A DNA stretch of 36,363 nt from NCBI GenBank assembly GCA_964517255.1, contig CAZFBP010000001.1, positions 1 to 36,363 on the forward strand. Direction: 5' to 3'. A model generated the notes under the pieces. That model was not told the DNA's origin. It searched no databases and saw only the letters and a program-made list of their open reading frames with translations. Positions 4,692 to 36,363 of this stretch are shown one piece after another. Each line of letters starts with the position of its first letter. The first letter of the stretch is position 1. The DNA comes from an uncultured Chryseobacterium sp. Lineage in GTDB: Bacteria; Bacteroidota; Bacteroidia; Flavobacteriales_F; PHOS-HE28. A program made the translations under genes and the position numbers.

Positions 4692-6458
4692 ATGCCTCTG
4701 CTCGACCTCCACGCCCACTTCAGCTTCAAGCCCGCGAACAGCAGCGGCGCCGATGGCCGCCTGCCCGACAGCAACCACTGGCGCGAGCGCTTCAAGGACC
4801 CCGCCGACTTCAGCCGCTTGATCACGCTGCTGGACCGTGAGGCCGTGAAGAGCAGCCAGCTGCATGGTGATGCGGCCACGGTGGGCGGCTTCCGCGTGGT
4901 GGTGAACGCGTTGTACCCGCTGGAGAAAGGGTTCACTTCGGTCATCTTCAACCGCGAGCTGGCCACCCTCACGGGCCACGACGTGGCCGTGCTGGAGGCC
5001 ATCAATGAGGACCGCATCGCGCCGTTCACCCTGCTCTGCCGCGAGTACGGCAACCTGCTGGCATCCGAACGCGCGGAGCGCGCGCAACGGATCAGTGCCG
5101 TAGGCAATGCCTTCCGCCTGGTGAAGGACTACAACGGCATCGTGGCCGCGCTGCGCGAGGACCCCGCCACCATCTGCATCGTGAACAGCGTGGAGGGCGC
5201 GCACGCCTTCGGCGACCTGCTGCTCGATGCGCGCGGCAACCCCCGGAGCATCCACGACGCCGAGCACGTGCACCTGCGCGGCGTGGGCAACGGGCCACGC
5301 CGCCACGAACTGCGCCGCTGGGTGCAGGCCACGCGCACGAACATCGAGCGCGTGAAGACCACTTGGTCGCAGCCGCCCTTCTTCGTCACGTTCGCGCACC
5401 ATTATTACAACCACCTCTGCGGGCACTCGCCCAGCCTGATGGCCTCCATCAACGCGCTGTGCAAGCAGGATGGCCGGGTGTACGATGAGGCCGGCCAGGC
5501 GCGGGTGCGCTATTTCGACCTGGGCATGCGCACCTGGGGACAGGAGGTGATGGATGAATTGCTGAGCCGCCAGAGCTCCACCAGCCAGCCCGTGCGCCGC
5601 ATCCTCATCGACACCAAGCACATGAGCCCGCAGGCGCGCGTGGACTACTACACCCACCTGGTGCTGCGCAGGCAGCAGGGCGACAAAGTGCCCATCGTGG
5701 TGAGTCACAGCGCGGTGAGCGGCCGCCGGAGCCTGCAGGACACCATCGCGCACAACAACAACCCGGGGGCGGACTTCGATCTGCGCCCTGGTGAGGAAGT
5801 GAGCACGCGCTACTTCTACGATGGCGTGATCAACCTCTTCGACGACGAGATCCAGCGCGTGGTGGCCACCGATGGCATCATGGGCCTGATGATCGACGAG
5901 CGCCGCATCATGGGACGCGAGATCCCGCCCGAAGGCGGCGTGACCATGGACACCTTCACCGCGCGCAGCAAGGCGATGCGCGGCCTAATGCACGACTGGA
6001 CCATGCTGAAGCAGCGCCATGCCTGGGGCCGTGTGAATGCGGCCGACTTCGCCAACCAGCTCGCGAGCATCAACCGCCAGATGGAGCCCTTGCTCGCCGA
6101 TCTGCGTCCGGCCTACCTGAGCGTGGTGTTCCGGCAGCTCTTCCACATCATGGCGCTGGTGGGCGAGCGCGGCTGGAACCATGTGGCACTCGGCACGGAC
6201 TACGACGGCGTGATCAATCCGATCGACATCTACAAGCAGAGCAGCGACATGGCACGCCTGCGCCAGGACCTCATCGATTTCTGGAACGCCAGCCTCAACA
6301 GCCCCGATGCCGAAGTACGCGCGCTGTACACGCTGCACGGCTACGGCCAGGACCCGGCCGTGTGGGTGGACAAGCTGCTCTGGGGCAACGGCATGGACTT
6401 CCTCCGCAAGTACTACAACGACGACTACCTCCTTCACGGGCAGCAGCCCATCATCTGA
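4692..6458 (+). CDS. Peptidase M19 (membrane/renal dipeptidase)-like amidohydrolase-fold protein, unusually long (588 aa), no signal peptide
   Basis: An M19-like motif series is present: LDLHAH (metal-binding N-terminus), NSVEGAHAF, VTFAHHYYNH, IVVSHSAVSG and VALGTDYDGVINPI (compare GsDfDG). The ATG lies 3 nt after the upstream stop. Confidence 0.55.
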   Translation: MPLLDLHAHFSFKPANSSGADGRLPDSNHWRERFKDPADFSRLITLLDREAVKSSQLHGDAATVGGFRVVVNALYPLEKGFTSVIFNRELATLTGHDVAVLEAINEDRIAPFTLLCREYGNLLASERAERAQRISAVGNAFRLVKDYNGIVAALREDPATICIVNSVEGAHAFGDLLLDARGNPRSIHDAEHVHLRGVGNGPRRHELRRWVQATRTNIERVKTTWSQPPFFVTFAHHYYNHLCGHSPSLMASINALCKQDGRVYDEAGQARVRYFDLGMRTWGQEVMDELLSRQSSTSQPVRRILIDTKHMSPQARVDYYTHLVLRRQQGDKVPIVVSHSAVSGRRSLQDTIAHNNNPGADFDLRPGEEVSTRYFYDGVINLFDDEIQRVVATDGIMGLMIDERRIMGREIPPEGGVTMDTFTARSKAMRGLMHDWTMLKQRHAWGRVNAADFANQLASINRQMEPLLADLRPAYLSVVFRQLFHIMALVGERGWNHVALGTDYDGVINPIDIYKQSSDMARLRQDLIDFWNASLNSPDAEVRALYTLHGYGQDPAVWVDKLLWGNGMDFLRKYYNDDYLLHGQQPII

Positions 6459-16253: not shown

Positions 16254-17165
16254 CTAGCTGCCCATCTGCTGCTTGGCCTCGATGCTCAGGGTGGCGTGCG
16301 GCACCAGGCGCAAACGCTCTTTGCTGATCAAGCGGCCGGTGACGCGGCAGATGCCGTAGGTCTTGTTGCGGATGCGCAGCAGCGCGTCCTCCAGGTGCTT
16401 GATGAACTTCTCCTGGCGGCCGGCGAGCTGCGCGGTCTCCTCGCGGCTCAGCGTCTCGCTGCCATCCTCGATCATCTTGAACGAGGGGCTGGTGTCGTCG
16501 GTGCCGTTGTTGTCGGTGTTCGCGAGCGTCTGCTTCAGAAGGTCGTAATCGCGCCGGGCCTCATCGAGCTTGTGCATGATGATCTCCTTGAACTCATCGA
16601 GCTCGTCGTCGTTGTAGCGCGCTTTGTCGGCGCTCTCCAAAGTGCTCACTTGCTTCTTCACCACGGGCGGCGTAACGGGGCGCATGGGCGCGCTTACTTG
16701 CGTCACCAACGGTGCTGCGGGGGCTTTCGGTTCCTTCGGTTCCTTCTTCGATTCCTTCTTCACGGGTTTCGGGGCGGCCACGGGGGCCGGTTTAGGTGCT
16801 GGTTTGGCCGTTGCGGGCGCAGGCTTCGGCGCGGGAGCGAGTTTCGCTGCCGCCTTCGGTTGCGGCTTGGGGGCTGGCTTCGCTTCCGGCTTTTTAGCCA
16901 CAGGCTTCGGCGCTGGTTTCGCGGCGGGCTTCACAGCGGGTTTGGGCTGGGGCTTCGCGACGGGTTTGCTCGCGGCTGCGGGCTTGCCTGCCGGGGTCGG
17001 CTTCTTGGCTACAGGCTTAACGGCTTTCACGGGTTTCGTCTTGGCCTTCGGCTTCGCGACGGGCTTGCTGGCCTTGGCGGGCTTCGCAGCAGGCTTCTTC
17101 GCGGCAGGCTTCGTGGCCTTCTTGGCTACGGGCTTGGCCGGCTTCTTCGCGGGTTTCTTGGCCAT
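16254..17165 (-). CDS. DksA/TraR-family regulator with a roughly 160-aa Ala/Lys/Pro-rich (histone H1-like) N-terminal extension
   Basis: The C-terminal half (ETLSREETAQLAGRQEKFIKHLEDALLRIRNKTYGICRVTGRLISKERLRLVPHATLSIEAK) has the DksA/TraR coiled-coil plus finger layout. ATG at 17165 (MAKKPAKKPAK...) is preferred over 17195. The N-terminus consists of KPA/KPV/PKP repeats. Confidence 0.7.
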   Translation of the reverse strand: MAKKPAKKPAKPVAKKATKPAAKKPAAKPAKASKPVAKPKAKTKPVKAVKPVAKKPTPAGKPAAASKPVAKPQPKPAVKPAAKPAPKPVAKKPEAKPAPKPQPKAAAKLAPAPKPAPATAKPAPKPAPVAAPKPVKKESKKEPKEPKAPAAPLVTQVSAPMRPVTPPVVKKQVSTLESADKARYNDDELDEFKEIIMHKLDEARRDYDLLKQTLANTDNNGTDDTSPSFKMIEDGSETLSREETAQLAGRQEKFIKHLEDALLRIRNKTYGICRVTGRLISKERLRLVPHATLSIEAKQQMGS

Positions 17166-20833: not shown

Positions 20834-21598
20834 TCAATAGGACTTGAATCGCACCATCATCATGTTCCCCTTCTCCTCGCGGCGAATGTCCAACTGGTCC
20901 TTCAGTGCATTCACGAGCGACGAGAGCGATGCATGGCCGAAGCTCCTCGGGTCGAAACCGGGGTCCAAACGACGCAGTGCTTGGCCGATGAGGCTGAGCG
21001 AAGCCTCCTCCTCCTCGCCTTTGGCGATGTTGAAGGCCTTGCGGAGCTTGCGCATGAGCTCGCCGTTCTGGGAGGGGCTGGCGAGAGGCGCCTTGGAGGC
21101 CGCGGTCGCGCGCCTGGCGCGCTCTTTCTGCAAAGCACCCGTCGGAATGGATTCCTGCACATCCAGATTCTCCACGTAGATGAACCGCTCGCATGCCTTC
21201 ACGAAGGCATCCGGGGTCTTCTTCTCGCCAACGCCCATCACGAACAGTCCGCTCTCGCGCAGTCGCGTGGCCAGCCGCGTGTAGTCGCTGTCGCTGCTCA
21301 CGATGCAGAACGCATCCACCAGCTGGCCGTGCAGGATGTCCATGGCATCGATGATCAGCGCGCTGTCCGTGCTGTTCTTGCCCTTGGTGTAGGCGAACTG
21401 CTGCACAGGCTGGATGGCGTTGCTGTTCAACAGCTCCTTCCAGCCGCTCATGCCTTGCGTGGTCCAGTCGCCGTAGATGCGGCGTATGGTGATGGTGCCC
21501 TGCTCGCTCACCTCCTCCAGGATCGCGGCCAGCCGCTTGGGCGCCGCGTTATCGCCATCGATCAGCAGCGCGATCGTGGTGTCATTGATCTTCTTCAT
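20834..21598 (-). CDS. NYN-domain (LabA/DUF88-like) putative RNase with a C-terminal OST-HTH/LOTUS domain
   Basis: The NYN pattern is present (IALLIDGDNA...IRRIYGDW...KGKNSTDSALIIDAMD...FCIVSSDSDYTRLATRLRESG..VMGVG). The C-terminus (LSLIGQALRRLDPGFDPRSFGHASLSSLVNALKD) is LOTUS-like. The ATG is at 21598. Confidence 0.75.
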   Translation of the reverse strand: MKKINDTTIALLIDGDNAAPKRLAAILEEVSEQGTITIRRIYGDWTTQGMSGWKELLNSNAIQPVQQFAYTKGKNSTDSALIIDAMDILHGQLVDAFCIVSSDSDYTRLATRLRESGLFVMGVGEKKTPDAFVKACERFIYVENLDVQESIPTGALQKERARRATAASKAPLASPSQNGELMRKLRKAFNIAKGEEEEASLSLIGQALRRLDPGFDPRSFGHASLSSLVNALKDQLDIRREEKGNMMMVRFKSY

Positions 21599-25934: not shown

Positions 25935-26477
25935 ATGGCCTCAACAACCAGCATCATGCTCAGCAAGAAGATCGAAGCGGCCCTCAACGGCCAGGTGGCC
26001 GTGGAGGCCGCCAGCAGCCAAGCCTACCTCGCCATGGCCTCGTGGGCCGAGAACCAGGGCCTTCAAGGGACCGCCGCCTTCCTCTACCGCCACAGCGATG
26101 AGGAGCGCCTGCACATGCTCAAGCTCATCAAGTTCATCAACGAGCGCGGCGGCCGTGCCGTGGTGCCCGCGCTGAAGCAGCCCGGCACCAAGTACAAGGC
26201 CATCACCGATGTGTTCCAGGCCCTGCTCGATCACGAGACCATCGTGACCAACGAGATCAACGGCGTGGTGGACCTCTGCCTGAAAGAGAAGGACTACACC
26301 ACGCACAACTTCATGCAGTGGTACGTGGGCGAGCAGATCGAGGAAGAGGCGCTGGCGCGCACGCTCATCGACAAGCTGAACCTGATCGGCAACGACAAAG
26401 GCGGCCTTTACCTCTTCGACCGCGACCTCGAAGGGATGAAAGGCGCGCAGGGCGGCAACGCCAGGGGCGGACAGTGA
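25935..26477 (+). CDS. ftnA: Non-heme ferritin
   Basis: MLSKKIEAALNGQVAVEAASSQAYLAMASWAE...HSDEERLHMLKLIKFINERGG...EQIEEEA carries the ferroxidase-centre Glu/His pattern. By homology the start may be the ATG at 25956. Confidence 0.85.
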   Translation: MASTTSIMLSKKIEAALNGQVAVEAASSQAYLAMASWAENQGLQGTAAFLYRHSDEERLHMLKLIKFINERGGRAVVPALKQPGTKYKAITDVFQALLDHETIVTNEINGVVDLCLKEKDYTTHNFMQWYVGEQIEEEALARTLIDKLNLIGNDKGGLYLFDRDLEGMKGAQGGNARGGQ

Positions 26478-26529: not shown

Positions 26530-28017
26530 TCATGGCCAGGGCCAATCGCCGCCGATGCGCAACGGTTGCTCCAGGCCGGAATCGATGAGCCGCTGCTTCA
26601 AGGCTCCTTCGGTGAAATGCGGCGGCAGCGCTTCCTCTGCCGCGAGCAGGTAGGCCAACGCGCCCACGAAGCGCACGTTGTCCACCATGGCCTGCGGATC
26701 CACCAGGTGCAAGTCGTCACAACTGCTGTGGTAGCAGCCATAGACATGCTTGCCCAGATCGCTGAGCGGATAGATCACCGGCACGCCCGCCATAAGGAAG
26801 GGCTGGTGGTCGCTGTGCAGCCACACCTCTTCGCTCACGCGTCCCGCGAATGCCGCGCTGTCGACGGCGCGGATCGAATCCGACGCGCGCTTCAGCAGAT
26901 CCCCCCATCCCTGCGGCCCGCCCACTCCGAACCCTTGCGGGTGCCCGCTCATGTCCAGGTTGATCATGCACTTCACGCGGTTCAGCTCGCCTGTGGCGCG
27001 GTACGCTTCGACCAGCGCGCGCGAGCCCAGCAGCCCCTGCTCTTCGCCCATGAAGAGCACGAAACGGATGGTGCGCTCCGGCTTGAAGGGCATCGCGGCC
27101 ATGGCCCGCGCCATGTCGAGGATGGAGAAGGAGCCTAATCCATTGTCGGTGGCGCCCGTGGCCAGGTCCCAGCTATCGAGGTGGCCGCCGATCACAAGCA
27201 CCTCATCGGGCTTCTTCGTTCCGGGGATCTCCGCAATGATGTTGCTGGCCGTGACCACGGCGCTGGTGTTGCGCATGCCCAAGCGCGCAGTGAGCGCTTG
27301 ACCCGCGCGGAGACGCTCGCGCAGCGCAGTGCCATCCTCCGTGGCGATGCAAGCCGCTGGCACGGGGATCAGCGCGCCATCGATGGACGCCGTGCCGGTG
27401 AGCAGCACATGCCCTTCGGCCTGATTCACGAAGACCAGCGCGGCCGCGCCACGGTCCATGGCCAGTTTGGCCTTCTCGCTCCGGTGCAGGTTCCGCTCTC
27501 CCTCGGTGGCGGCCACCAGCCCGATGTTCACCAGCAGCGCCGCGCCCCTGATGCGGTCGCCGAGGCTGTCGAGGTCCGTTGGAAGTCCGTTGCGCGCGTC
27601 GATCAGCGGTGCTTCCACCGAAGCCTCCAGCGGCGTGTTGGCGAGCGCCACGGCCTGCACATGCAGGAAGCCCTCGCCATCGCCCACGGTGAGCTGCACG
27701 CTGCCGCGCGACCAGGCCTGCGCGGTGAAGGGGAAGCGCTTCACCACGGGCAGGCCGCCCAGACGGAAGAGGCTGTCGGCCGCGGCCTGGGCCTGCTCGC
27801 CCTGCGGGCTGCCGGTGAGGCGGTGGCCGATGCGCTCGGAGCTCCAACGCAGCCAGCGATAGCCCATGGCATCGGTCTGCGCTGCGCGGTCGAAGGCCGA
27901 CTGCATCGCGCTCTGGGCCGATGCGTCAACAGAAACGTGTTGACAGACCGCGAGGAGCAGCGCCGGGGCGAGGCGCGCGCGGCGGATACTTTGCAACGGG
28001 GCGGGGGTACTCGGCAT
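26530..28017 (-). CDS. M28-family aminopeptidase with a PA-domain insertion, secreted
   Basis: ATG at 28017 gives a signal-like N-terminus (MPSTPAPLQSIRRARLAPALLLAVCQHVSVDASAQS). Metal ligand blocks are present (VIGGHLDSWDLATGATDNGLG, FVLFMGEEQGLLGS, INLDMSG, HSDHQPF). Confidence 0.78.
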   Translation of the reverse strand: MPSTPAPLQSIRRARLAPALLLAVCQHVSVDASAQSAMQSAFDRAAQTDAMGYRWLRWSSERIGHRLTGSPQGEQAQAAADSLFRLGGLPVVKRFPFTAQAWSRGSVQLTVGDGEGFLHVQAVALANTPLEASVEAPLIDARNGLPTDLDSLGDRIRGAALLVNIGLVAATEGERNLHRSEKAKLAMDRGAAALVFVNQAEGHVLLTGTASIDGALIPVPAACIATEDGTALRERLRAGQALTARLGMRNTSAVVTASNIIAEIPGTKKPDEVLVIGGHLDSWDLATGATDNGLGSFSILDMARAMAAMPFKPERTIRFVLFMGEEQGLLGSRALVEAYRATGELNRVKCMINLDMSGHPQGFGVGGPQGWGDLLKRASDSIRAVDSAAFAGRVSEEVWLHSDHQPFLMAGVPVIYPLSDLGKHVYGCYHSSCDDLHLVDPQAMVDNVRFVGALAYLLAAEEALPPHFTEGALKQRLIDSGLEQPLRIGGDWPWP

Positions 28018-28045: not shown

Positions 28046-28600
28046 ATGCGAAGGGCATCGGCTGAACTGCCGTTCTGGAGGCTCGGGCTGCTGCTGCCCC
28101 TGCTGCTATGCAGCGCCACGCAGCAGCCGCGCGACTCGGAGAAGGACACCACCTCGATCCTGCAGGCCAACTACATCTACAACATCGCCAAGCTGGTGGA
28201 GTGGAAGGACGAGGGCATGCGGCAGGGCAACTTCATCGTGGGCGTGCTGGGCGGCGCCAACCTGTACCAGGAGCTCATCAAGCAGTACAGCACGCGCACC
28301 ATCGGCAAGCAGCCCATCGAGGTGCGCAAACTGCCGCGCACGGCCGAGGTGGAGCGCTGCCACATCCTGTTCGTGGGCAAGAGCGAACTGGGACTGCTGC
28401 CCGAGATCTACAAGCGCAACCACGGCAAGCCCACCATGGTGGTCACCGAGTACGCCGGCGCGCTGGAGGATGGCGCGGTGGTGAACTTCGTGAAGGTGGA
28501 GAATATGCTGAAGTACGAGCTGAGCATGGCCAACGCCAAGACGCACGGACTGGTGGTCGGCCTCACCCTCAAGAACCTCGCGCACCGCGTGCAGGAATGA
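28046..28600 (+). CDS. YfiR-family (DUF4154) periplasmic protein
   Basis: A signal peptide is present (MRRASAELPFWRLGLLLPLLLCSA). The body (ILQANYIYNIAKLVEW...FIVGVLG...CHILFVG...TMVVTE...GAVVNFVKVENMLKYELSMANAKTHGLVVGLTLKNLA) follows the YfiR pattern. An alternative ATG lies at 28016. Confidence 0.75.
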   Translation: MRRASAELPFWRLGLLLPLLLCSATQQPRDSEKDTTSILQANYIYNIAKLVEWKDEGMRQGNFIVGVLGGANLYQELIKQYSTRTIGKQPIEVRKLPRTAEVERCHILFVGKSELGLLPEIYKRNHGKPTMVVTEYAGALEDGAVVNFVKVENMLKYELSMANAKTHGLVVGLTLKNLAHRVQE

Positions 28601-29487
28601 CCATGAAGCCCCGCGCCCTCCTCTTGCTGCTGCTCGCCCTCCCGGCGCTTGCGCTGCGCGCGCAGGACCCGCTGGTGGAGGCCTTGCGCAAGTACCAGGC
28701 GGGCGACCTGCAAGGCGCGCGCGAAATGGTGGACAAGGCCGTGGGGTCGGAGCAGCATGGTGGAAATGCGGAGGCCTGGCTCCTGCGGGGCTTCGTGTAC
28801 AAGGACCTGTACAAGGCGAAGGCCGGCACCGCCGAGGGCGATGCGGCGCGCGACACCGCGCTGGCCAGCCTGCACCGCACCCTGCGCATCGACAAGGACA
28901 GCACCTACCGCGACAATGCCGTGCAGGCCTACGAGTTCCTCTCGCGATCCTGCTACAACGAAGCCGCCAAGGCCCTGGCAGAAGGGCAGGACACCCGCGC
29001 CGTGACGCTCTACGACACCTATCGCGAGAGCGTGCTCCTGCTCAACCCCACGGCCGACATGCGCGCCCGCCAGGCCGAGTTCGCCAATGCGCTCGGCACG
29101 CTCTACACCCGGCGCTTCAACGAGGACCGCACGCGCACCGAATGGTTCGAGAAGGCCACCGACACCTACCGCGGCGTGCTGCGCATCGACCCCGAGAACT
29201 ACGGCGCCAACTACAACCTGGCCACGCTCTTCTACAACATGGGCGTGTACCGCATCCGCGCGCTGCAGGCCGAGGCCGACATCATCACCATGCAGCAGGT
29301 GCAGGAAGTGGCCCGCGAGTACTTCCAGCTGGCCCTGCCCTTCATGCTGAAGGCGCACGACATGAACCCCGGCCGGCGCGAGACGATCCTGGGCCTCGAG
29401 GGCATCTACTACAGCCTGCAGGACGAGATGAACTCGGAGAAGTTCCGCCAGCTCTACGAGGCGCTCCCGCCACAAGAGGACCGCTGA
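28597..29487 (+). CDS. Secreted TPR-like helical repeat protein
   Basis: Internal ATG of ORF 28108..29487, overlapping the yfiR-like stop (ATGA). A signal peptide is present (MTMKPRALLLLLLALPALALRAQ). TPR-like segments occur (e.g. ATDTYRGVLRIDPENYGANYNLATLFYNMG). Confidence 0.55.
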   Translation: MTMKPRALLLLLLALPALALRAQDPLVEALRKYQAGDLQGAREMVDKAVGSEQHGGNAEAWLLRGFVYKDLYKAKAGTAEGDAARDTALASLHRTLRIDKDSTYRDNAVQAYEFLSRSCYNEAAKALAEGQDTRAVTLYDTYRESVLLLNPTADMRARQAEFANALGTLYTRRFNEDRTRTEWFEKATDTYRGVLRIDPENYGANYNLATLFYNMGVYRIRALQAEADIITMQQVQEVAREYFQLALPFMLKAHDMNPGRRETILGLEGIYYSLQDEMNSEKFRQLYEALPPQEDR

Positions 29488-29492
29488 GCGCG

Positions 29493-31280
29493 ATGGCCAT
29501 GCGCATCACCATCGGACGGAAAGTCGGCCTGGGCTTCGGGCTCTTCATCTTCTTCGCCCTGCTCGTGGTGCTGCTCACCAACCGCAGCCTGGAGCGCAGC
29601 CGCGAGATCAACGCGGAGATCAACGAGGTGTGCTCGCCCTCGGTGGATGCGCTCGTGGGCCTGCGCAACCTCACGGTGCGCTCGCACATGCTCATCAAGC
29701 ACTGGGCGCTCATCGAGAGCCGCGCCGATGCCCCGGAGAAGACCACCTTGGTGGAGATCACCACCCAGCGCATCCCCGCCGCCCTCGACCAGATCGACAC
29801 CCTGATGGGCCACTGGTCGCAGGATGAAGTGGCCATCCTCACCCAGGTGCACGCGCAGCTCAATGAGCTCCTGAAGCTGCATGACCAGGTCAAGGAGATG
29901 CTGCCCTCGCTGGAGAGCTACAATGACCCCTTCACGCACATGGAGCGCACCGGCCTCGCCGAGGAGGACGGGCCCATCGACCAGCAGACCAACAAGGTGC
30001 TCGCCGAGCTGGACCGGCTGCTGAAACTCCACGAGGACAAGCGTCGCGAGCTCGGCGGCGGCATGATCCGCAGCTTCGACTCACTGAAGTTCTTCGTGCT
30101 CTACATGGGCCTCGCGCTCGTGGTGGTGGGCATCGCCGTGGCGGTGCTCATCATCCGTGGCATCGTGGTGCCGGTGCAACGCCTGCGCTCCATCCTGCTC
30201 AGCCTGGGCCGCGGCGTGTTCCCCCGCACGCGCGTGCGCGTCACCAACGATGAAGTGGGCGACATGAGCCGCGCCCTCACCGCATTGGTGGAAGGGCTTC
30301 GGCGCACCACCGACTTCTCCCATGCCGTGGCCGCCGGCGAATTCAACGCCGAGTACCAGCCCCTGAGCGAGGAGGACGTGCTGGGCCACGCCCTGCTGAA
30401 GATGCGCGACGAGCTCGGCCAGCGCGAGCGCGTGCTGGAGATGAAGGTGGCCGAGCGTACCGAGGAGGTGGTGCGGCAGAAGGAAGAGGTGGAGCGCCAG
30501 AGCCGCAAAGTGGTGGAGCTCTACAAGAACGTCACCGACAGCATCCGCTACGCCAAGCGGCTGCAGGACTCCATCCTTCCGCCCGATCGCCGCATCAAGG
30601 AGCTGCTTCCCGATGCCTTCGTGTATTACCGGCCCAAGGACATCGTGAGCGGCGACTTCTACTGGATGGAGCGCGTGGGCGACCGCGTGCTGTTCGCCGC
30701 CGTTGACTGCACCGGCCATGGCGTGCCGGGCGCCTTCATGAGCCTCATCGGCCACAATGGTCTCAACCAGGCCGCCAAGGAGCGCGGCCTTTTCAAGCCG
30801 GCCGAAGTGCTGGGCGAACTCAACCGCATCGCCTTCGACGCGCTGCACAAGGACCGCGAGCAGCACTTGATCCGCGACGGCATGGACCTGGCGCTCTGCA
30901 GCTACGATCCGCAGAGTCGGGTCCTCGACTACGCCGGCGCCAATTGCCCGCTCTACGTGGTGCGCGATGGCGAGACCATGGCTTTCGCCCCCAACAAGGC
31001 CGCCATCGGCAGCAATGAGTTCGGCGCGAAGGACTTCCTGGAGCACCGCATCGAGCTGCGCCAAGGCGACATGGTGTACGCCTTCTCCGATGGTTACGCC
31101 GATCAGTTCGGCGGGCCCAAGGGCAAGAAATTCCTCTACCGCCGTTTCCGCGAACTATTGGTCGAGGTGAGCGGGCACGCCCCGGACCGCCAGCGCCGCA
31201 TGCTGCACGATGCCTTCAACGCGTGGCGCGGCGCGCATGAGCAGGTGGACGACATCCTGGTGATCGGCCTGCGGGCCTGA
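29493..31280 (+). CDS. Membrane sensor with a periplasmic four-helix-bundle-like domain, HAMP, a coiled coil and a PP2C/SpoIIE phosphatase domain
   Basis: Internal ATG of ORF 29142..31280. TM1 is VGLGFGLFIFFALLVVLL and TM2 is FFVLYMGLALVVVGIAVAVLII. The HAMP region is VVPVQRLRSILLSLGRG...NDEVGDMSRALTALVEGL. SpoIIE blocks are present (DIVSGDFYWME, FAAVDCTGHGVPGAFMS, DGMDLALC, FSDGYADQFGG, DDILVIGLRA). Confidence 0.82.
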   Translation: MAMRITIGRKVGLGFGLFIFFALLVVLLTNRSLERSREINAEINEVCSPSVDALVGLRNLTVRSHMLIKHWALIESRADAPEKTTLVEITTQRIPAALDQIDTLMGHWSQDEVAILTQVHAQLNELLKLHDQVKEMLPSLESYNDPFTHMERTGLAEEDGPIDQQTNKVLAELDRLLKLHEDKRRELGGGMIRSFDSLKFFVLYMGLALVVVGIAVAVLIIRGIVVPVQRLRSILLSLGRGVFPRTRVRVTNDEVGDMSRALTALVEGLRRTTDFSHAVAAGEFNAEYQPLSEEDVLGHALLKMRDELGQRERVLEMKVAERTEEVVRQKEEVERQSRKVVELYKNVTDSIRYAKRLQDSILPPDRRIKELLPDAFVYYRPKDIVSGDFYWMERVGDRVLFAAVDCTGHGVPGAFMSLIGHNGLNQAAKERGLFKPAEVLGELNRIAFDALHKDREQHLIRDGMDLALCSYDPQSRVLDYAGANCPLYVVRDGETMAFAPNKAAIGSNEFGAKDFLEHRIELRQGDMVYAFSDGYADQFGGPKGKKFLYRRFRELLVEVSGHAPDRQRRMLHDAFNAWRGAHEQVDDILVIGLRA

Positions 31281-31284
31281 TCGC

Positions 31285-32124
31285 CTACTGAAAGCTCCAG
31301 CCTCCGCCGGTGCCCGTCTCGCGCGGGTTCATGCACATCACCGGGATCTGCGCCTCATTGGTGATGACTTCCTGCTCGTAGGGCACCCCCAGCACGCCGA
31401 AGATGTTGCCCTGCGACAGGTTCATGATCGTGATCAGGTCGGCATCCACGCTCACGGCGTGCTTGATCACCGCCTGCACGAAATCGCCGCTGTCCTCGGC
31501 CGTGATCACCGCATCATGCTTGATGCCGCGCTCATCGAGGTACTGGTTGGCGAACTTGATGTGATTCTGCAACTGCTTATGCAGGAACTCGTCGTCCTCG
31601 CGCGGCACAACCAAGTGCACCTTGCTGTTGAAGGTGCGCGCCATCTCGGCCACCAAGGTCAGCTTCTGGCGGGTCTCCTTATGCAGGTCAAGCGGAACCA
31701 CGATGCTGTCGTAGCCGCCCTCCTTGATGGGGCGTTCCTGCACCACCACGAAGGGCACGCTGCTGCTGGTGATCACGCGCAGGGCGCGGCTGCCGGTGAT
31801 GAACTGCATGCCGCGCATGCCGTGGGTGCCCATCACGATCAGGTTGGCGCTGATCTCGGCCGCCGCATCGCCGATGTCGTCATAGATGGAGCCGACGCGA
31901 ACCAGCTTATGCACGCGAACGCCTGCTTCCATGGCCTGGGCACGCTCCTGCTCCATTTCCAGCTTGCGCCGTGTCACCTCCGTCTCATCCTGATTGGCCA
32001 CCACGTGCAGGAGGTAAACCTCGGCGCCCGTGTGCTTGGCCAGCCGCATGGCATGGGCCATGGCATTGTCGGCCACCTTGGTGAAGTCGGTGGGCACCAG
32101 GATCTTATTGGTCGTTCCGCTCAT
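31285..32124 (-). CDS. Universal stress protein, tandem Usp domains
   Basis: There are two Usp-like halves (KILVPTDFT...LLHVV...IVMGTHG.....GSRALRVITSSSVPFVVV and SIVVPLDL...). Confidence 0.8.
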   Translation of the reverse strand: MSGTTNKILVPTDFTKVADNAMAHAMRLAKHTGAEVYLLHVVANQDETEVTRRKLEMEQERAQAMEAGVRVHKLVRVGSIYDDIGDAAAEISANLIVMGTHGMRGMQFITGSRALRVITSSSVPFVVVQERPIKEGGYDSIVVPLDLHKETRQKLTLVAEMARTFNSKVHLVVPREDDEFLHKQLQNHIKFANQYLDERGIKHDAVITAEDSGDFVQAVIKHAVSVDADLITIMNLSQGNIFGVLGVPYEQEVITNEAQIPVMCMNPRETGTGGGWSFQ

Positions 32125-32348: not shown

Positions 32349-32717
32349 ATGACGACGATGAAGAACAAGGTGCAGCTCATTGGCCATGTCGGGAACGACC
32401 CCGAACTGAAGAACGTGGGCAGCAATGGCACGGCCATGCTGCGCTTGCGGCTGGCCACCAACGAGCGTTTCAAGGCCGCTGCGGGCGAATGGAAGGAGGA
32501 CACGCAATGGCACCCGGTGGTGGTGTGGGGCAAGCAGGCCGAGCGAATGGCCGCCCAAGTGCGGAAGGGCAGCGGCCTGCTCCTGGAGGGGCGCCTGGTG
32601 CACAGCACCTACGAGGCCAAGGACGGCAGCAAGCGCGTGAGCACCGATGTGGTCCTTACCGACTACCAGTTGCTGGCGCCGAAGACAGAGGCTGTTCTAG
32701 CCGAGGCCGAGCAGTAA
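32349..32717 (+). CDS. ssb: Short single-stranded DNA-binding protein paralog (OB fold only, no acidic C-terminal tip)
   Basis: KNKVQLIGHVGNDPELK......LRLATNE.......DTQWHPVVVWGKQAE.....RKGSGLLLEGRLVHSTYEAKDGSKR is the SSB OB-fold pattern. The protein ends in ...AVLAEAEQ. Confidence 0.8.
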   Translation: MTTMKNKVQLIGHVGNDPELKNVGSNGTAMLRLRLATNERFKAAAGEWKEDTQWHPVVVWGKQAERMAAQVRKGSGLLLEGRLVHSTYEAKDGSKRVSTDVVLTDYQLLAPKTEAVLAEAEQ

Positions 32718-35844: not shown

Positions 35845-36091
35845 CCATGGGCCTTTCTTGGGCCAAGACAAGCGGCAGGATCGCGGCGCTGCCTGTGGCC
35901 TTCGGCAGTGGGAAGATAGGCGCGGCCGCCCCGAAGTTGCCCCAGCAGCAAACGACAGCCAACGCTTGTAATCGGCTGCAAGCGGGTACTGGCCGGATCC
36001 GTGAGGGGTGCCGGGGAAATGTTTGCGGCGTCGGTCGGCATCAGCACCGGACGGCGGAAACCGAAAGTCAAACACACAAACACCCAGTACC

Positions 36092-36363
36092 ATGAACACG
36101 CTGAAGAACAAAGTCCACCTCGTAGGCAACCTTGGCTTCGACCCGGAAGTGCGCGAGATCGCCAAGGGCCGTAAGGTGGCCCGCCTCTCTGTGGCCACCA
36201 ACGAGAGCTACAAGAACGCCAGCGGCGAGCGCATCACCGATACCCAGTGGCACACCGTGGTGGCCTGGGGCCAGACCGCCGAGATGGCCGAGCGCCTGCT
36301 CCGCAAGGGAACACCCGTGATGCTCGAAGGCCGCCTGGTGCACCGCAGCTACGAGGCCAAGGA
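36092..36363 (+). CDS. ssb: Second short SSB paralog, 3' end outside the window
   Basis: This gene is not in the ORF track because no stop is reached. My own translation from ATG 36092 is MNTLKNKVHLVGNLGFDPEVREIAKGRKVARLSVATNESYKNASGERITDTQWHTVVAWGQTAEMAERLLRKGTPVMLEGRLVHRSYEAK, which is clearly homologous to 32349..32717. Confidence 0.78.
   Translation, partial: MNTLKNKVHLVGNLGFDPEVREIAKGRKVARLSVATNESYKNASGERITDTQWHTVVAWGQTAEMAERLLRKGTPVMLEGRLVHRSYEAK

Follow-up and report, generated by a model that had tools for sequence, protein, structure and literature searches.

The DNA analysed here, referred to as the window, comprises contig C1 (36.4 kb) in full and belongs to a Bacteroidota metagenome-assembled genome (MAG; 3.48 Mb, 521 contigs, 91% complete, ~65% GC). 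Three adjoining genes on its plus strand encode a YfiR-like periplasmic protein, a secreted tetratricopeptide repeat (TPR)-like protein and a sensor phosphatase with two transmembrane (TM) helices, and this trio is one conserved envelope-sensing unit. The genes, the domains of the third gene and the convergent neighbour are as follows.

28046-28600, plus strand: gene 1, YfiR-like (DUF4154) periplasmic protein, 184 amino acids (aa); signal peptide at about residues 1-24; PF13689 match
28597-29487, plus strand: gene 2, secreted TPR-like solenoid protein, 296 aa; PF20308 TPR-S match, type I signal peptide, AlphaFold2 model
29493-31280, plus strand: gene 3, sensor phosphatase with two TM helices, 595 aa; SpoIIE match (E=1.6e-21), NCBIfam SiaA match
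29580-30080, plus strand: periplasmic sensor domain of gene 3, predicted four-helix bundle at about residues 30-196, between TM1 and TM2; AlphaFold2
30147-30332, plus strand: HAMP domain of gene 3, about residues 219-280; PF00672 below cut-off, AlphaFold2
30585-31274, plus strand: SiaA-type PP2C (SpoIIE family) catalytic domain of gene 3; match to 6K4E, preceded by linker helices (residues 296-361)
31285-32124, minus strand: convergent tandem universal stress protein (Usp) gene, 279 aa; PF00582 in two stretches; membership of the module uncertain

The initial annotation had described three plus-strand genes joined by an ATGA overlap and a 5-nt gap, with the Usp gene 4 nt away, and all its coordinates and junctions were borne out. 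Read base by base, the TGA of gene 1 (28598-28600) overlaps the ATG of gene 2 (28597-28599) as ATGA, five bases (gcgcg) separate the end of gene 2 at 29487 from the ATG of gene 3 at 29493, and the end of the Usp gene lies 4 nt from that of the phosphatase gene.

Architecture of the three proteins

The product of gene 3 contains two hydrophobic helices, TM1 (about residues 10-29) and TM2 (about residues 197-221), which enclose about 167 periplasmic residues. In its AlphaFold2 model (predicted local distance difference test score, pLDDT, of 83), TM1 is followed by a periplasmic four-helix bundle, TM2, HAMP, two linker helices and the PP2C domain. The predicted bundle helices span residues 7-73, 81-107, 110-136 and 161-239, with block pLDDT values of 81-95 over residues 31-200, and the helices of the HAMP region run up to residue 239 and then over residues 254-280. 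The periplasmic domain gave no match to CHASE8, the periplasmic domain of YfiN, or to any other Pfam family. HAMP (PF00672) was matched at residues 219-270 below the cut-off (E=7.5e-4, 20 bits vs. a cut-off of 25), and most orthologues carry a precomputed HAMP call.

The catalytic half points to SiaA, the phosphatase of the Pseudomonas aeruginosa SiaABCD system. The sole match of the phosphatase among PDB sequences was the SiaA PP2C domain 6K4E (E=1.2e-37), which was also the best Foldseek hit of the PP2C model (TM-score 0.89, 32% identity); RssB, SpoIIE and RsbU-type domains reached 18-21% identity. The NCBIfam SiaA model scored 220 bits over residues 265-594, leaving the N-terminal half outside the match, and since this value is far under the equivalog cut-off of 700, we regard the phosphatase as a SiaA relative and not an orthologue. 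Residues D388, D405, C406-G410, D462, D465, D533, D537, D586 and D587, which include all PPM-motif aspartates and the DCTGHG motif, are invariant in 61 orthologues. In a PP2C tree the RsbU-like GAF-PP2C protein encoded elsewhere in the genome is a distant outgroup to the trio phosphatase. By sequence match and predicted fold, the catalytic domain is thus of the SiaA type. The SpoIIE match, the invariant aspartates and the model agree with the sensor as first annotated, i.e. two TM helices, a periplasmic helical bundle, HAMP and a complete SpoIIE/PP2C domain, with the Pfam score for HAMP remaining below threshold.

In Pseudomonas, YfiR is the periplasmic repressor of the HAMP-GGDEF cyclase YfiN and is itself sequestered by the outer-membrane lipoprotein YfiB. 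Gene 1, the sole DUF4154 gene of the genome, matches PF13689 (DUF4154, 'YfiR/HmsC-like') with E=1.4e-27 and 97 bits against a cut-off of 24.9, in agreement with its earlier description as a DUF4154/YfiR-like protein with a signal peptide; against NCBIfam YfiR_like_TOL0243 it scored 99 bits, under the cut-off of 125. A PDB search with the single sequence returned no YfiR match, and only a profile of seven orthologues reached YfiR, aligning over the full length with crystal structures 4YN7 and 4ZHY (E ~1e-3). All YfiR-like orthologues have a hydrophobic N-terminus. We ruled out a lipoprotein reading of the protein, based on the string LLLC, as its cysteine is not conserved. YfiR has four conserved cysteines (PMC4655355). 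Aligned with 4YN7, the YfiR-like protein retains just one of them, C105 at the position of C110, and has V, A/K and N at the other three. In YfiR the pairs C71-C110 and C145-C152 give DsbA/redox dependence; as neither is kept, this control is not conserved in the YfiR-like protein.

The signal peptide of the gene 2 product ends ALRA|QD and is of type I, with cleavage at A22|Q23; A22 and Q23 are invariant, and neither a lipobox nor a conserved cysteine is present. TPR-S (PF20308) was matched at 42 bits (cut-off 27.6), and TPR_19, TPR_11 and TPR_17 coincide on one canonical TPR at residues 185-216. Orthologue alignments revealed the conserved blocks W-x-L-R-G-F-V-Y-K, N-Y-G-A-N-Y-N-L-A and ALPYMLKAH. 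AlphaFold2 predicts a 12-helix solenoid (pLDDT 92, predicted TM-score 0.84), for which Foldseek returned generic TPR matches only (TM-scores 0.2-0.4). Signal peptide, TPR-S match and model all agree with a secreted TPR-like protein. The YfiB-like role that the initial annotation had tentatively suggested for it found no support, as the protein lacks a lipobox and an OmpA/Pal-like domain, is soluble, differs in fold and is encoded between the other two genes. Partial matches to it, in proteins of ~380-500 aa, occur in many genomes of the Bacteroidota sample described below. A longer secreted TPR paralogue of 393 aa, related at both ends, is encoded on contig C167 of the same genome (2269-3450, minus strand), directly downstream of gyrA.

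Conservation of the trio and the partners of other YfiR-like genes

We collected loci from public genomes by a profile scan with the TPR alignment, retaining the best 80 of 400 relatives, all of the same order, and took a sample of 401 evenly drawn Bacteroidota genomes for the wider picture. In these best 80 of 400 relatives, the order YfiR-like, TPR, PP2C on one strand was found at 80/80 loci. The GTDB order of the organism, with one family and two genera, is represented by 132 species genomes, and 131 of them contain a full-length sensor orthologue. Beyond this order, the trio was found with the same gene order and gaps of at most 81 nt in at least five further families of Bacteroidia, namely f5, f6 and f8 (genomes G028, G029 and G031), f32 (G401) and f25 (G142, G146 and G126, the last with the TPR gene duplicated in tandem). 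These loci range from 34 to 45% in GC content, and identity is 24-35% between the periplasmic proteins and 40-46% between the phosphatases. In maximum-likelihood trees of PP2C and YfiR-like proteins the trio members formed one clade each (support 84/91 and 94/87, respectively), and both trees split identically into f1 plus f25 on one side and f5, f6, f8 and f32 on the other. The agreement of the trees indicates that the three genes have long been inherited together, and the order and co-divergence answer positively whether the triad first noted here is co-conserved. At the scale of the phylum the distribution is patchy, with a full-length TPR orthologue in 5/401 and a YfiR-like gene of the trio profile in 26/401 genomes. 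A word-based homologue search with the sensor half retrieved close relatives of the same order only, annotated as 'SpoIIE family protein phosphatase', and the exact phosphatase sequence had no entry in the contig collection. Related public records are labelled as Flavobacteriales or Bacteroidota MAGs, and the isolate names of many refer to wastewater or freshwater. As judged from these names, the hosts are abundant uncultured wastewater and freshwater Bacteroidota, and the trio is a module core to their whole order.

For comparison we examined 25 further YfiR-like sites of the phylum sample. Their commonest layout is a TonB-dependent receptor gene followed by the YfiR-like gene, a CHASE8-HAMP histidine kinase gene and then response regulator genes. 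At locus L129 (genome G281) a YfiR-like gene directly precedes that of a methyl-accepting chemotaxis protein (MCP) with a four-helix bundle and HAMP, and at L124 the gene of a HAMP-GAF-PAS protein, the YfiR-like protein of L124 falling within the trio clade. The sensor half of gene 3 has homologues in the N-terminal halves of both sensors (26-29% identity, E ~1e-13). The TPR gene is missing from both of these pairs of YfiR-like protein and four-helix-bundle sensor, and was found with the phosphatase version only. What stays constant is the pairing of a YfiR-like protein with a membrane sensor, here across at least four output classes. No other observation speaks as strongly for an action of the YfiR-like protein on the periplasmic domain of the sensor. 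Taken together with the MCP, GAF-PAS and kinase versions, the trio suggests a general role of DUF4154 proteins as plug-in regulators that serve membrane sensors from the periplasm.

Two of these layouts deserve mention in their own right. The MCP gene of L129 is followed by open reading frames that resemble, by eye, small STAS-like, CheY-like, Hpt-like and CheA-like genes; such an arrangement would amount to a YfiR-gated chemosensory pathway. In six cases (L133, L140-L144) DUF4154 and a larger cytoplasmic part form one chain, linked by a coiled coil and a single TM helix. In the two proteins scanned against Pfam (L133 and L142) this part is a plain or hybrid histidine kinase, so that a free periplasmic regulator appears to have been turned into the sensor domain itself.

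Proposed signalling route and candidate substrates

For this unit we infer physical binding, regulatory sign, signal, substrate and final output as follows. The explanation we favour, with a probability of roughly 55%, is that the trio forms a sensor gated by the YfiR-like and TPR proteins, whose PP2C domain acts on a SiaC-type switch, SiaB and SiaC both being encoded apart. A periplasmic signal would travel through the four-helix bundle, HAMP and the helical linker to the SiaA-type PP2C domain, a Ser/Thr phosphatase, in the cytoplasm. Phosphatase activity is most likely set by the soluble YfiR-like protein through binding to the bundle, as YfiR sets that of YfiN, and the TPR solenoid would be a third periplasmic partner, particular to the phosphatase version, serving as scaffold, co-receptor or sequestering protein. 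Going by sequence relationships, the phosphatase most likely acts in trans, dephosphorylating a SiaC-type (DUF1987) protein that had been phosphorylated by a SiaB-family kinase. The freed SiaC would then bind its target. Because no GGDEF domain (PF00990) was found in the 91%-complete genome, this target is probably not a diguanylate cyclase, which is unlikely as the final output.

The periplasmic side could also work in a different way with the output unchanged. By analogy with maltose-binding protein, which serves Tar, and LuxP, which serves LuxQ, the YfiR-like protein might be a ligand-binding protein that delivers a small molecule to the bundle sensor and not a repressor, with the TPR protein as an assembly or stability factor. 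We consider such a role improbable, as the operon contains no transporter or metabolic gene hinting at a ligand and conservation within the family peaks in the motifs that form the protein-binding surface of YfiR.

Evidence for a SiaC-type substrate comes from the rest of the genome. It encodes four SpoIIE-family phosphatases, three of them SiaA-like (that of the trio, a PAS-PP2C and another membrane PP2C) and one an RsbU-type GAF-PP2C, and the counts of SiaA-like PP2C, SiaB-like and SiaC proteins are 3/3/3. A SiaB-family kinase gene (147.6 bits vs. a cut-off of 85) lies immediately upstream of SiaC1 on contig C87, while two further SiaB-like genes match more weakly, and SiaC1 retains the phospho-site motif N67-T68-S69. 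In Pseudomonas, SiaB places a phosphate on T68 of SiaC, which keeps SiaC from binding its target (PMC8457831). SiaC was present in 15/15 examined genomes with the trio sensor phosphatase, and in related genomes SiaA-like PP2C paralogues stand directly beside SiaB/SiaC (L149, L162, L163, L167, L173, L174/L182 and L176).

SpoIIE-family PP2Cs classically act on STAS proteins, and the same sensor unit might instead address a STAS anti-anti-sigma protein within an RsbV-RsbW-type switch, with a sigma factor or another STAS-controlled target as output. As noted initially, no STAS or anti-sigma partner-switch genes adjoin the trio, and none lies on the contig; a search of the genome located two STAS genes (contigs C161 and C66) and two RsbW-like kinase genes (C24 and C38), all on other contigs. 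These would be in keeping with such a switch, as would the STAS-like structure of SiaC itself (PMC8457831). On the other hand, the catalytic domain is far nearer to SiaA than to RsbU, SpoIIE or RssB, the separate RsbU-type GAF-PP2C is a natural partner for the STAS/RsbW pairs, and the matched numbers of SiaA-like, SiaB-like and SiaC proteins favour the Sia components. We therefore hold a STAS substrate to be unlikely.

The initial annotation had named the convergent tandem Usp as the nearest candidate substrate, and the Usp protein may be conceived as the partner of the phosphatase, either as substrate or as nucleotide-binding regulator. Its adjacency is conserved: in the best 80 of 400 relatives, the tandem Usp gene is adjacent and convergent, within a few to tens of bases, at all but two of the loci with enough downstream flank, which makes the arrangement near-universal in the order, and it is also found beside the phosphatase in family f25 (50-54% identity). 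Usp genes recur, moreover, in related settings. In G028 the closest Usp orthologue adjoins two SiaA-like PP2C paralogues and a class III cyclase, in G027 a PP2C paralogue is convergent (~35-nt gap) with two tandem Usp genes, in G281 a Usp gene is divergent from a cyclase, and in G401 one lies upstream of a TonB-receptor/YfiR-like pair. In the organism's own genome, a second tandem Usp gene on contig C39 (4756-5625, minus strand) is divergent from SiaC3 (5651-6034, plus strand) at ~25 nt, and this pair is kept in G440 (L180). By a rough hand estimate, chance would give fewer than 0.1 PP2C-Usp adjacencies per genome, and the observed Usp neighbourhoods exceed that.

Against a role as partner, Usp is absent beside the trio in the four other families (f5, f6, f8 and f32), the convergent orientation excludes co-transcription, and we found no direct evidence for Usp proteins of this type as PP2C substrates. 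A ferritin gene (25935-26477, plus strand) lies upstream of the operon with the M28 peptidase gene between them, and in f25 it stands directly upstream of the YfiR-like gene (L116 and L118; ~70% identity). Since f1 and f25 are sister groups that share this ferritin, the Usp adjacency represents one inherited synteny block and does not count as independent evidence. The adjacency first noticed is thus conserved, yet it was inherited together with ferritin, and SiaB/SiaC are likelier substrates than the convergent Usp, for which a partner role has in our estimate a low probability. As to the block of ferritin, trio and convergent Usp itself, its retention in two sister families may reflect a link to iron or oxidative stress or merely a retained gene order.

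An extension of the favoured explanation concerns cyclic AMP (cAMP). In it, a SiaB/SiaC threonine phospho-switch with cAMP output would receive its envelope input from the trio, dephosphorylated SiaC would activate a class III cyclase, and Usp proteins would serve as nucleotide-binding effectors or buffers. The hints come from gene neighbourhoods only: the genome encodes at least six class III nucleotide cyclases and gave no GGDEF match, and Usp and cyclase genes are neighbours in G028 and G281. We view this as a long shot; if true, it would describe a periplasm-to-cAMP pathway built from parts that Pseudomonas uses for cyclic di-GMP (c-di-GMP), in Bacteroidia without c-di-GMP enzymes. Contig C87 (848-8385) also holds the gene of a TPR-linked class III cyclase 1.6 kb from the SiaB-SiaC pair, and this pair lies tail-to-tail with the gene of a 1020-aa ATP-binding cassette transporter with a long N-terminal extension. 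The C87 cyclase was set aside as a SiaC target because the adjacency is not kept in G440.

Several observations weigh against a YfiR-gated, SiaC-directed phosphatase. SiaB/SiaC were directly joined to the trio in none of the examined loci, the two STAS and two RsbW-like proteins of the genome offer another set of possible partners, and the lack of a GGDEF match is provisional, the MAG being 91% complete. The non-CHASE8 sensor domain and the missing disulfide cysteines suggest that the YfiR-YfiN precedent would transfer only loosely. Finally, G030 has a full-length phosphatase relative (44% identity) without the YfiR-like/TPR pair upstream. Two candidate arrangements were discarded in the course of this comparison. 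One, in G030, consisted of the phosphatase gene and a YfiR-like gene 0.8 kb downstream, a pair without TPR, but this YfiR-like protein falls in another clade, and a SiaB/SiaC pair 3.5 kb upstream of the trio in G031 was discounted as a link, as four unrelated genes lie between, two of them on the other strand.

The trio is preceded in the window by genes for a divergent M28 peptidase, ferritin, RNase H and a MarC-family protein, and followed, beyond the Usp gene, by a single-stranded DNA-binding protein (SSB) gene and then the gene of a PKD-domain protein with an apparent type IX secretion sorting tail, judged by eye. The M28 peptidase gene likely starts at 28017, ~28 nt from the YfiR-like start at 28046; an alternative ATG of the YfiR-like gene at 28016 would overlap it. 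With only ~28 nt between the two starts, the promoters of both genes must sit within the coding sequence of the neighbour. A scan for sigma-70 promoters and terminators gave counts no higher than the shuffle level. The contig holds two SSB-like genes (32349-32717 and 36008-36361, both on the plus strand), of which the second runs off the contig end and was recognised by eye from its N-terminus. Two unusual small regulators are encoded on the minus strand, one (16257-17165) with a long Lys/Ala/Pro-rich N-terminus and a C-terminal DksA/TraR zinc finger, the other (20837-21595) combining NYN and OST-HTH/LOTUS domains in one protein.

Comparison with known systems

We compared the trio with the YfiBNR (TpbB) system of P. 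aeruginosa, the DgcN system of Escherichia coli and HmsCDE of Yersinia. All share a secreted DUF4154 protein encoded in an operon with a two-TM sensor that carries HAMP after TM2, and all consist of three parts, two of them extracytoplasmic. The differences from YfiBNR are several. The output domain is PP2C here, not GGDEF. The periplasmic domain of the sensor is a predicted four-helix bundle and not CHASE8, a domain easily recognised in the kinases paired with other YfiR-like genes, and the two cysteine pairs of YfiR are not kept. The third part is a soluble TPR solenoid encoded mid-operon, in place of an OmpA/Pal-like outer-membrane lipoprotein (YfiB/HmsE) encoded last; no OmpA-like gene was found in the operon. 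The likeness to YfiBNR is therefore one of logic and not of membership, and the trio is not a YfiBNR relative. Of the YfiBNR-like periplasmic logic with a phosphatase output put forward in the initial annotation, the secreted DUF4154 protein in one operon with a 2TM-HAMP-PP2C sensor stands, whereas the sensor domain, the cysteines and the YfiB part do not correspond.

With SiaABCD (P. aeruginosa PA0172-PA0169) the trio shares the 2TM-HAMP-PP2C architecture of SiaA, to which its catalytic domain is nearest, and the genome contains a SiaB-family kinase and a SiaC/DUF1987 protein with the N-T-S phospho-site motif. In contrast to SiaABCD, siaB and siaC are neither in the operon nor on the 36-kb contig and are found on contigs C87, C29, C39, C33 and C80, and no match to SiaD/GGDEF was obtained in the genome. 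We know of no dedicated YfiR-like or TPR periplasmic partners of SiaA. From RsbU/RsbV/RsbW switching the trio differs in that the contig has no STAS or HATPase_c_2 gene and the catalytic domain is distant from the GAF-PP2C of the genome.

The uncharacterised TonB-receptor/YfiR-like/CHASE8-HAMP kinase clusters of Bacteroidota and other phyla likewise have a YfiR-like gene directly upstream of that of a membrane sensor, together with a further extracytoplasmic protein. These clusters, however, begin with the gene of the extra protein, a TonB-dependent receptor of the outer membrane. Their sensors carry CHASE8 and signal through a two-component kinase with response regulators, and their YfiR-like proteins fall outside the trio clade.

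Our literature search returned no paper joining YfiR with PP2C and met DUF4154 only in structural work on YfiR, and the SiaABCD literature treats DUF1987 proteins outside Pseudomonas in general terms only. The trio provides a compact, genetically defined system for studying which signals such sensors detect in the envelope of Bacteroidota and which processes SiaC-type switches govern where no GGDEF-type cyclase exists. To our knowledge, YfiR-family proteins are known experimentally solely as repressors of one diguanylate cyclase, and SiaA-type phosphatases solely from the Pseudomonas SiaABCD biofilm switch. Set beside these two, the trio represents a third arrangement, in which a YfiR-like protein and a dedicated TPR protein are combined with a SiaA-type phosphatase in bacteria without detectable c-di-GMP synthesis.

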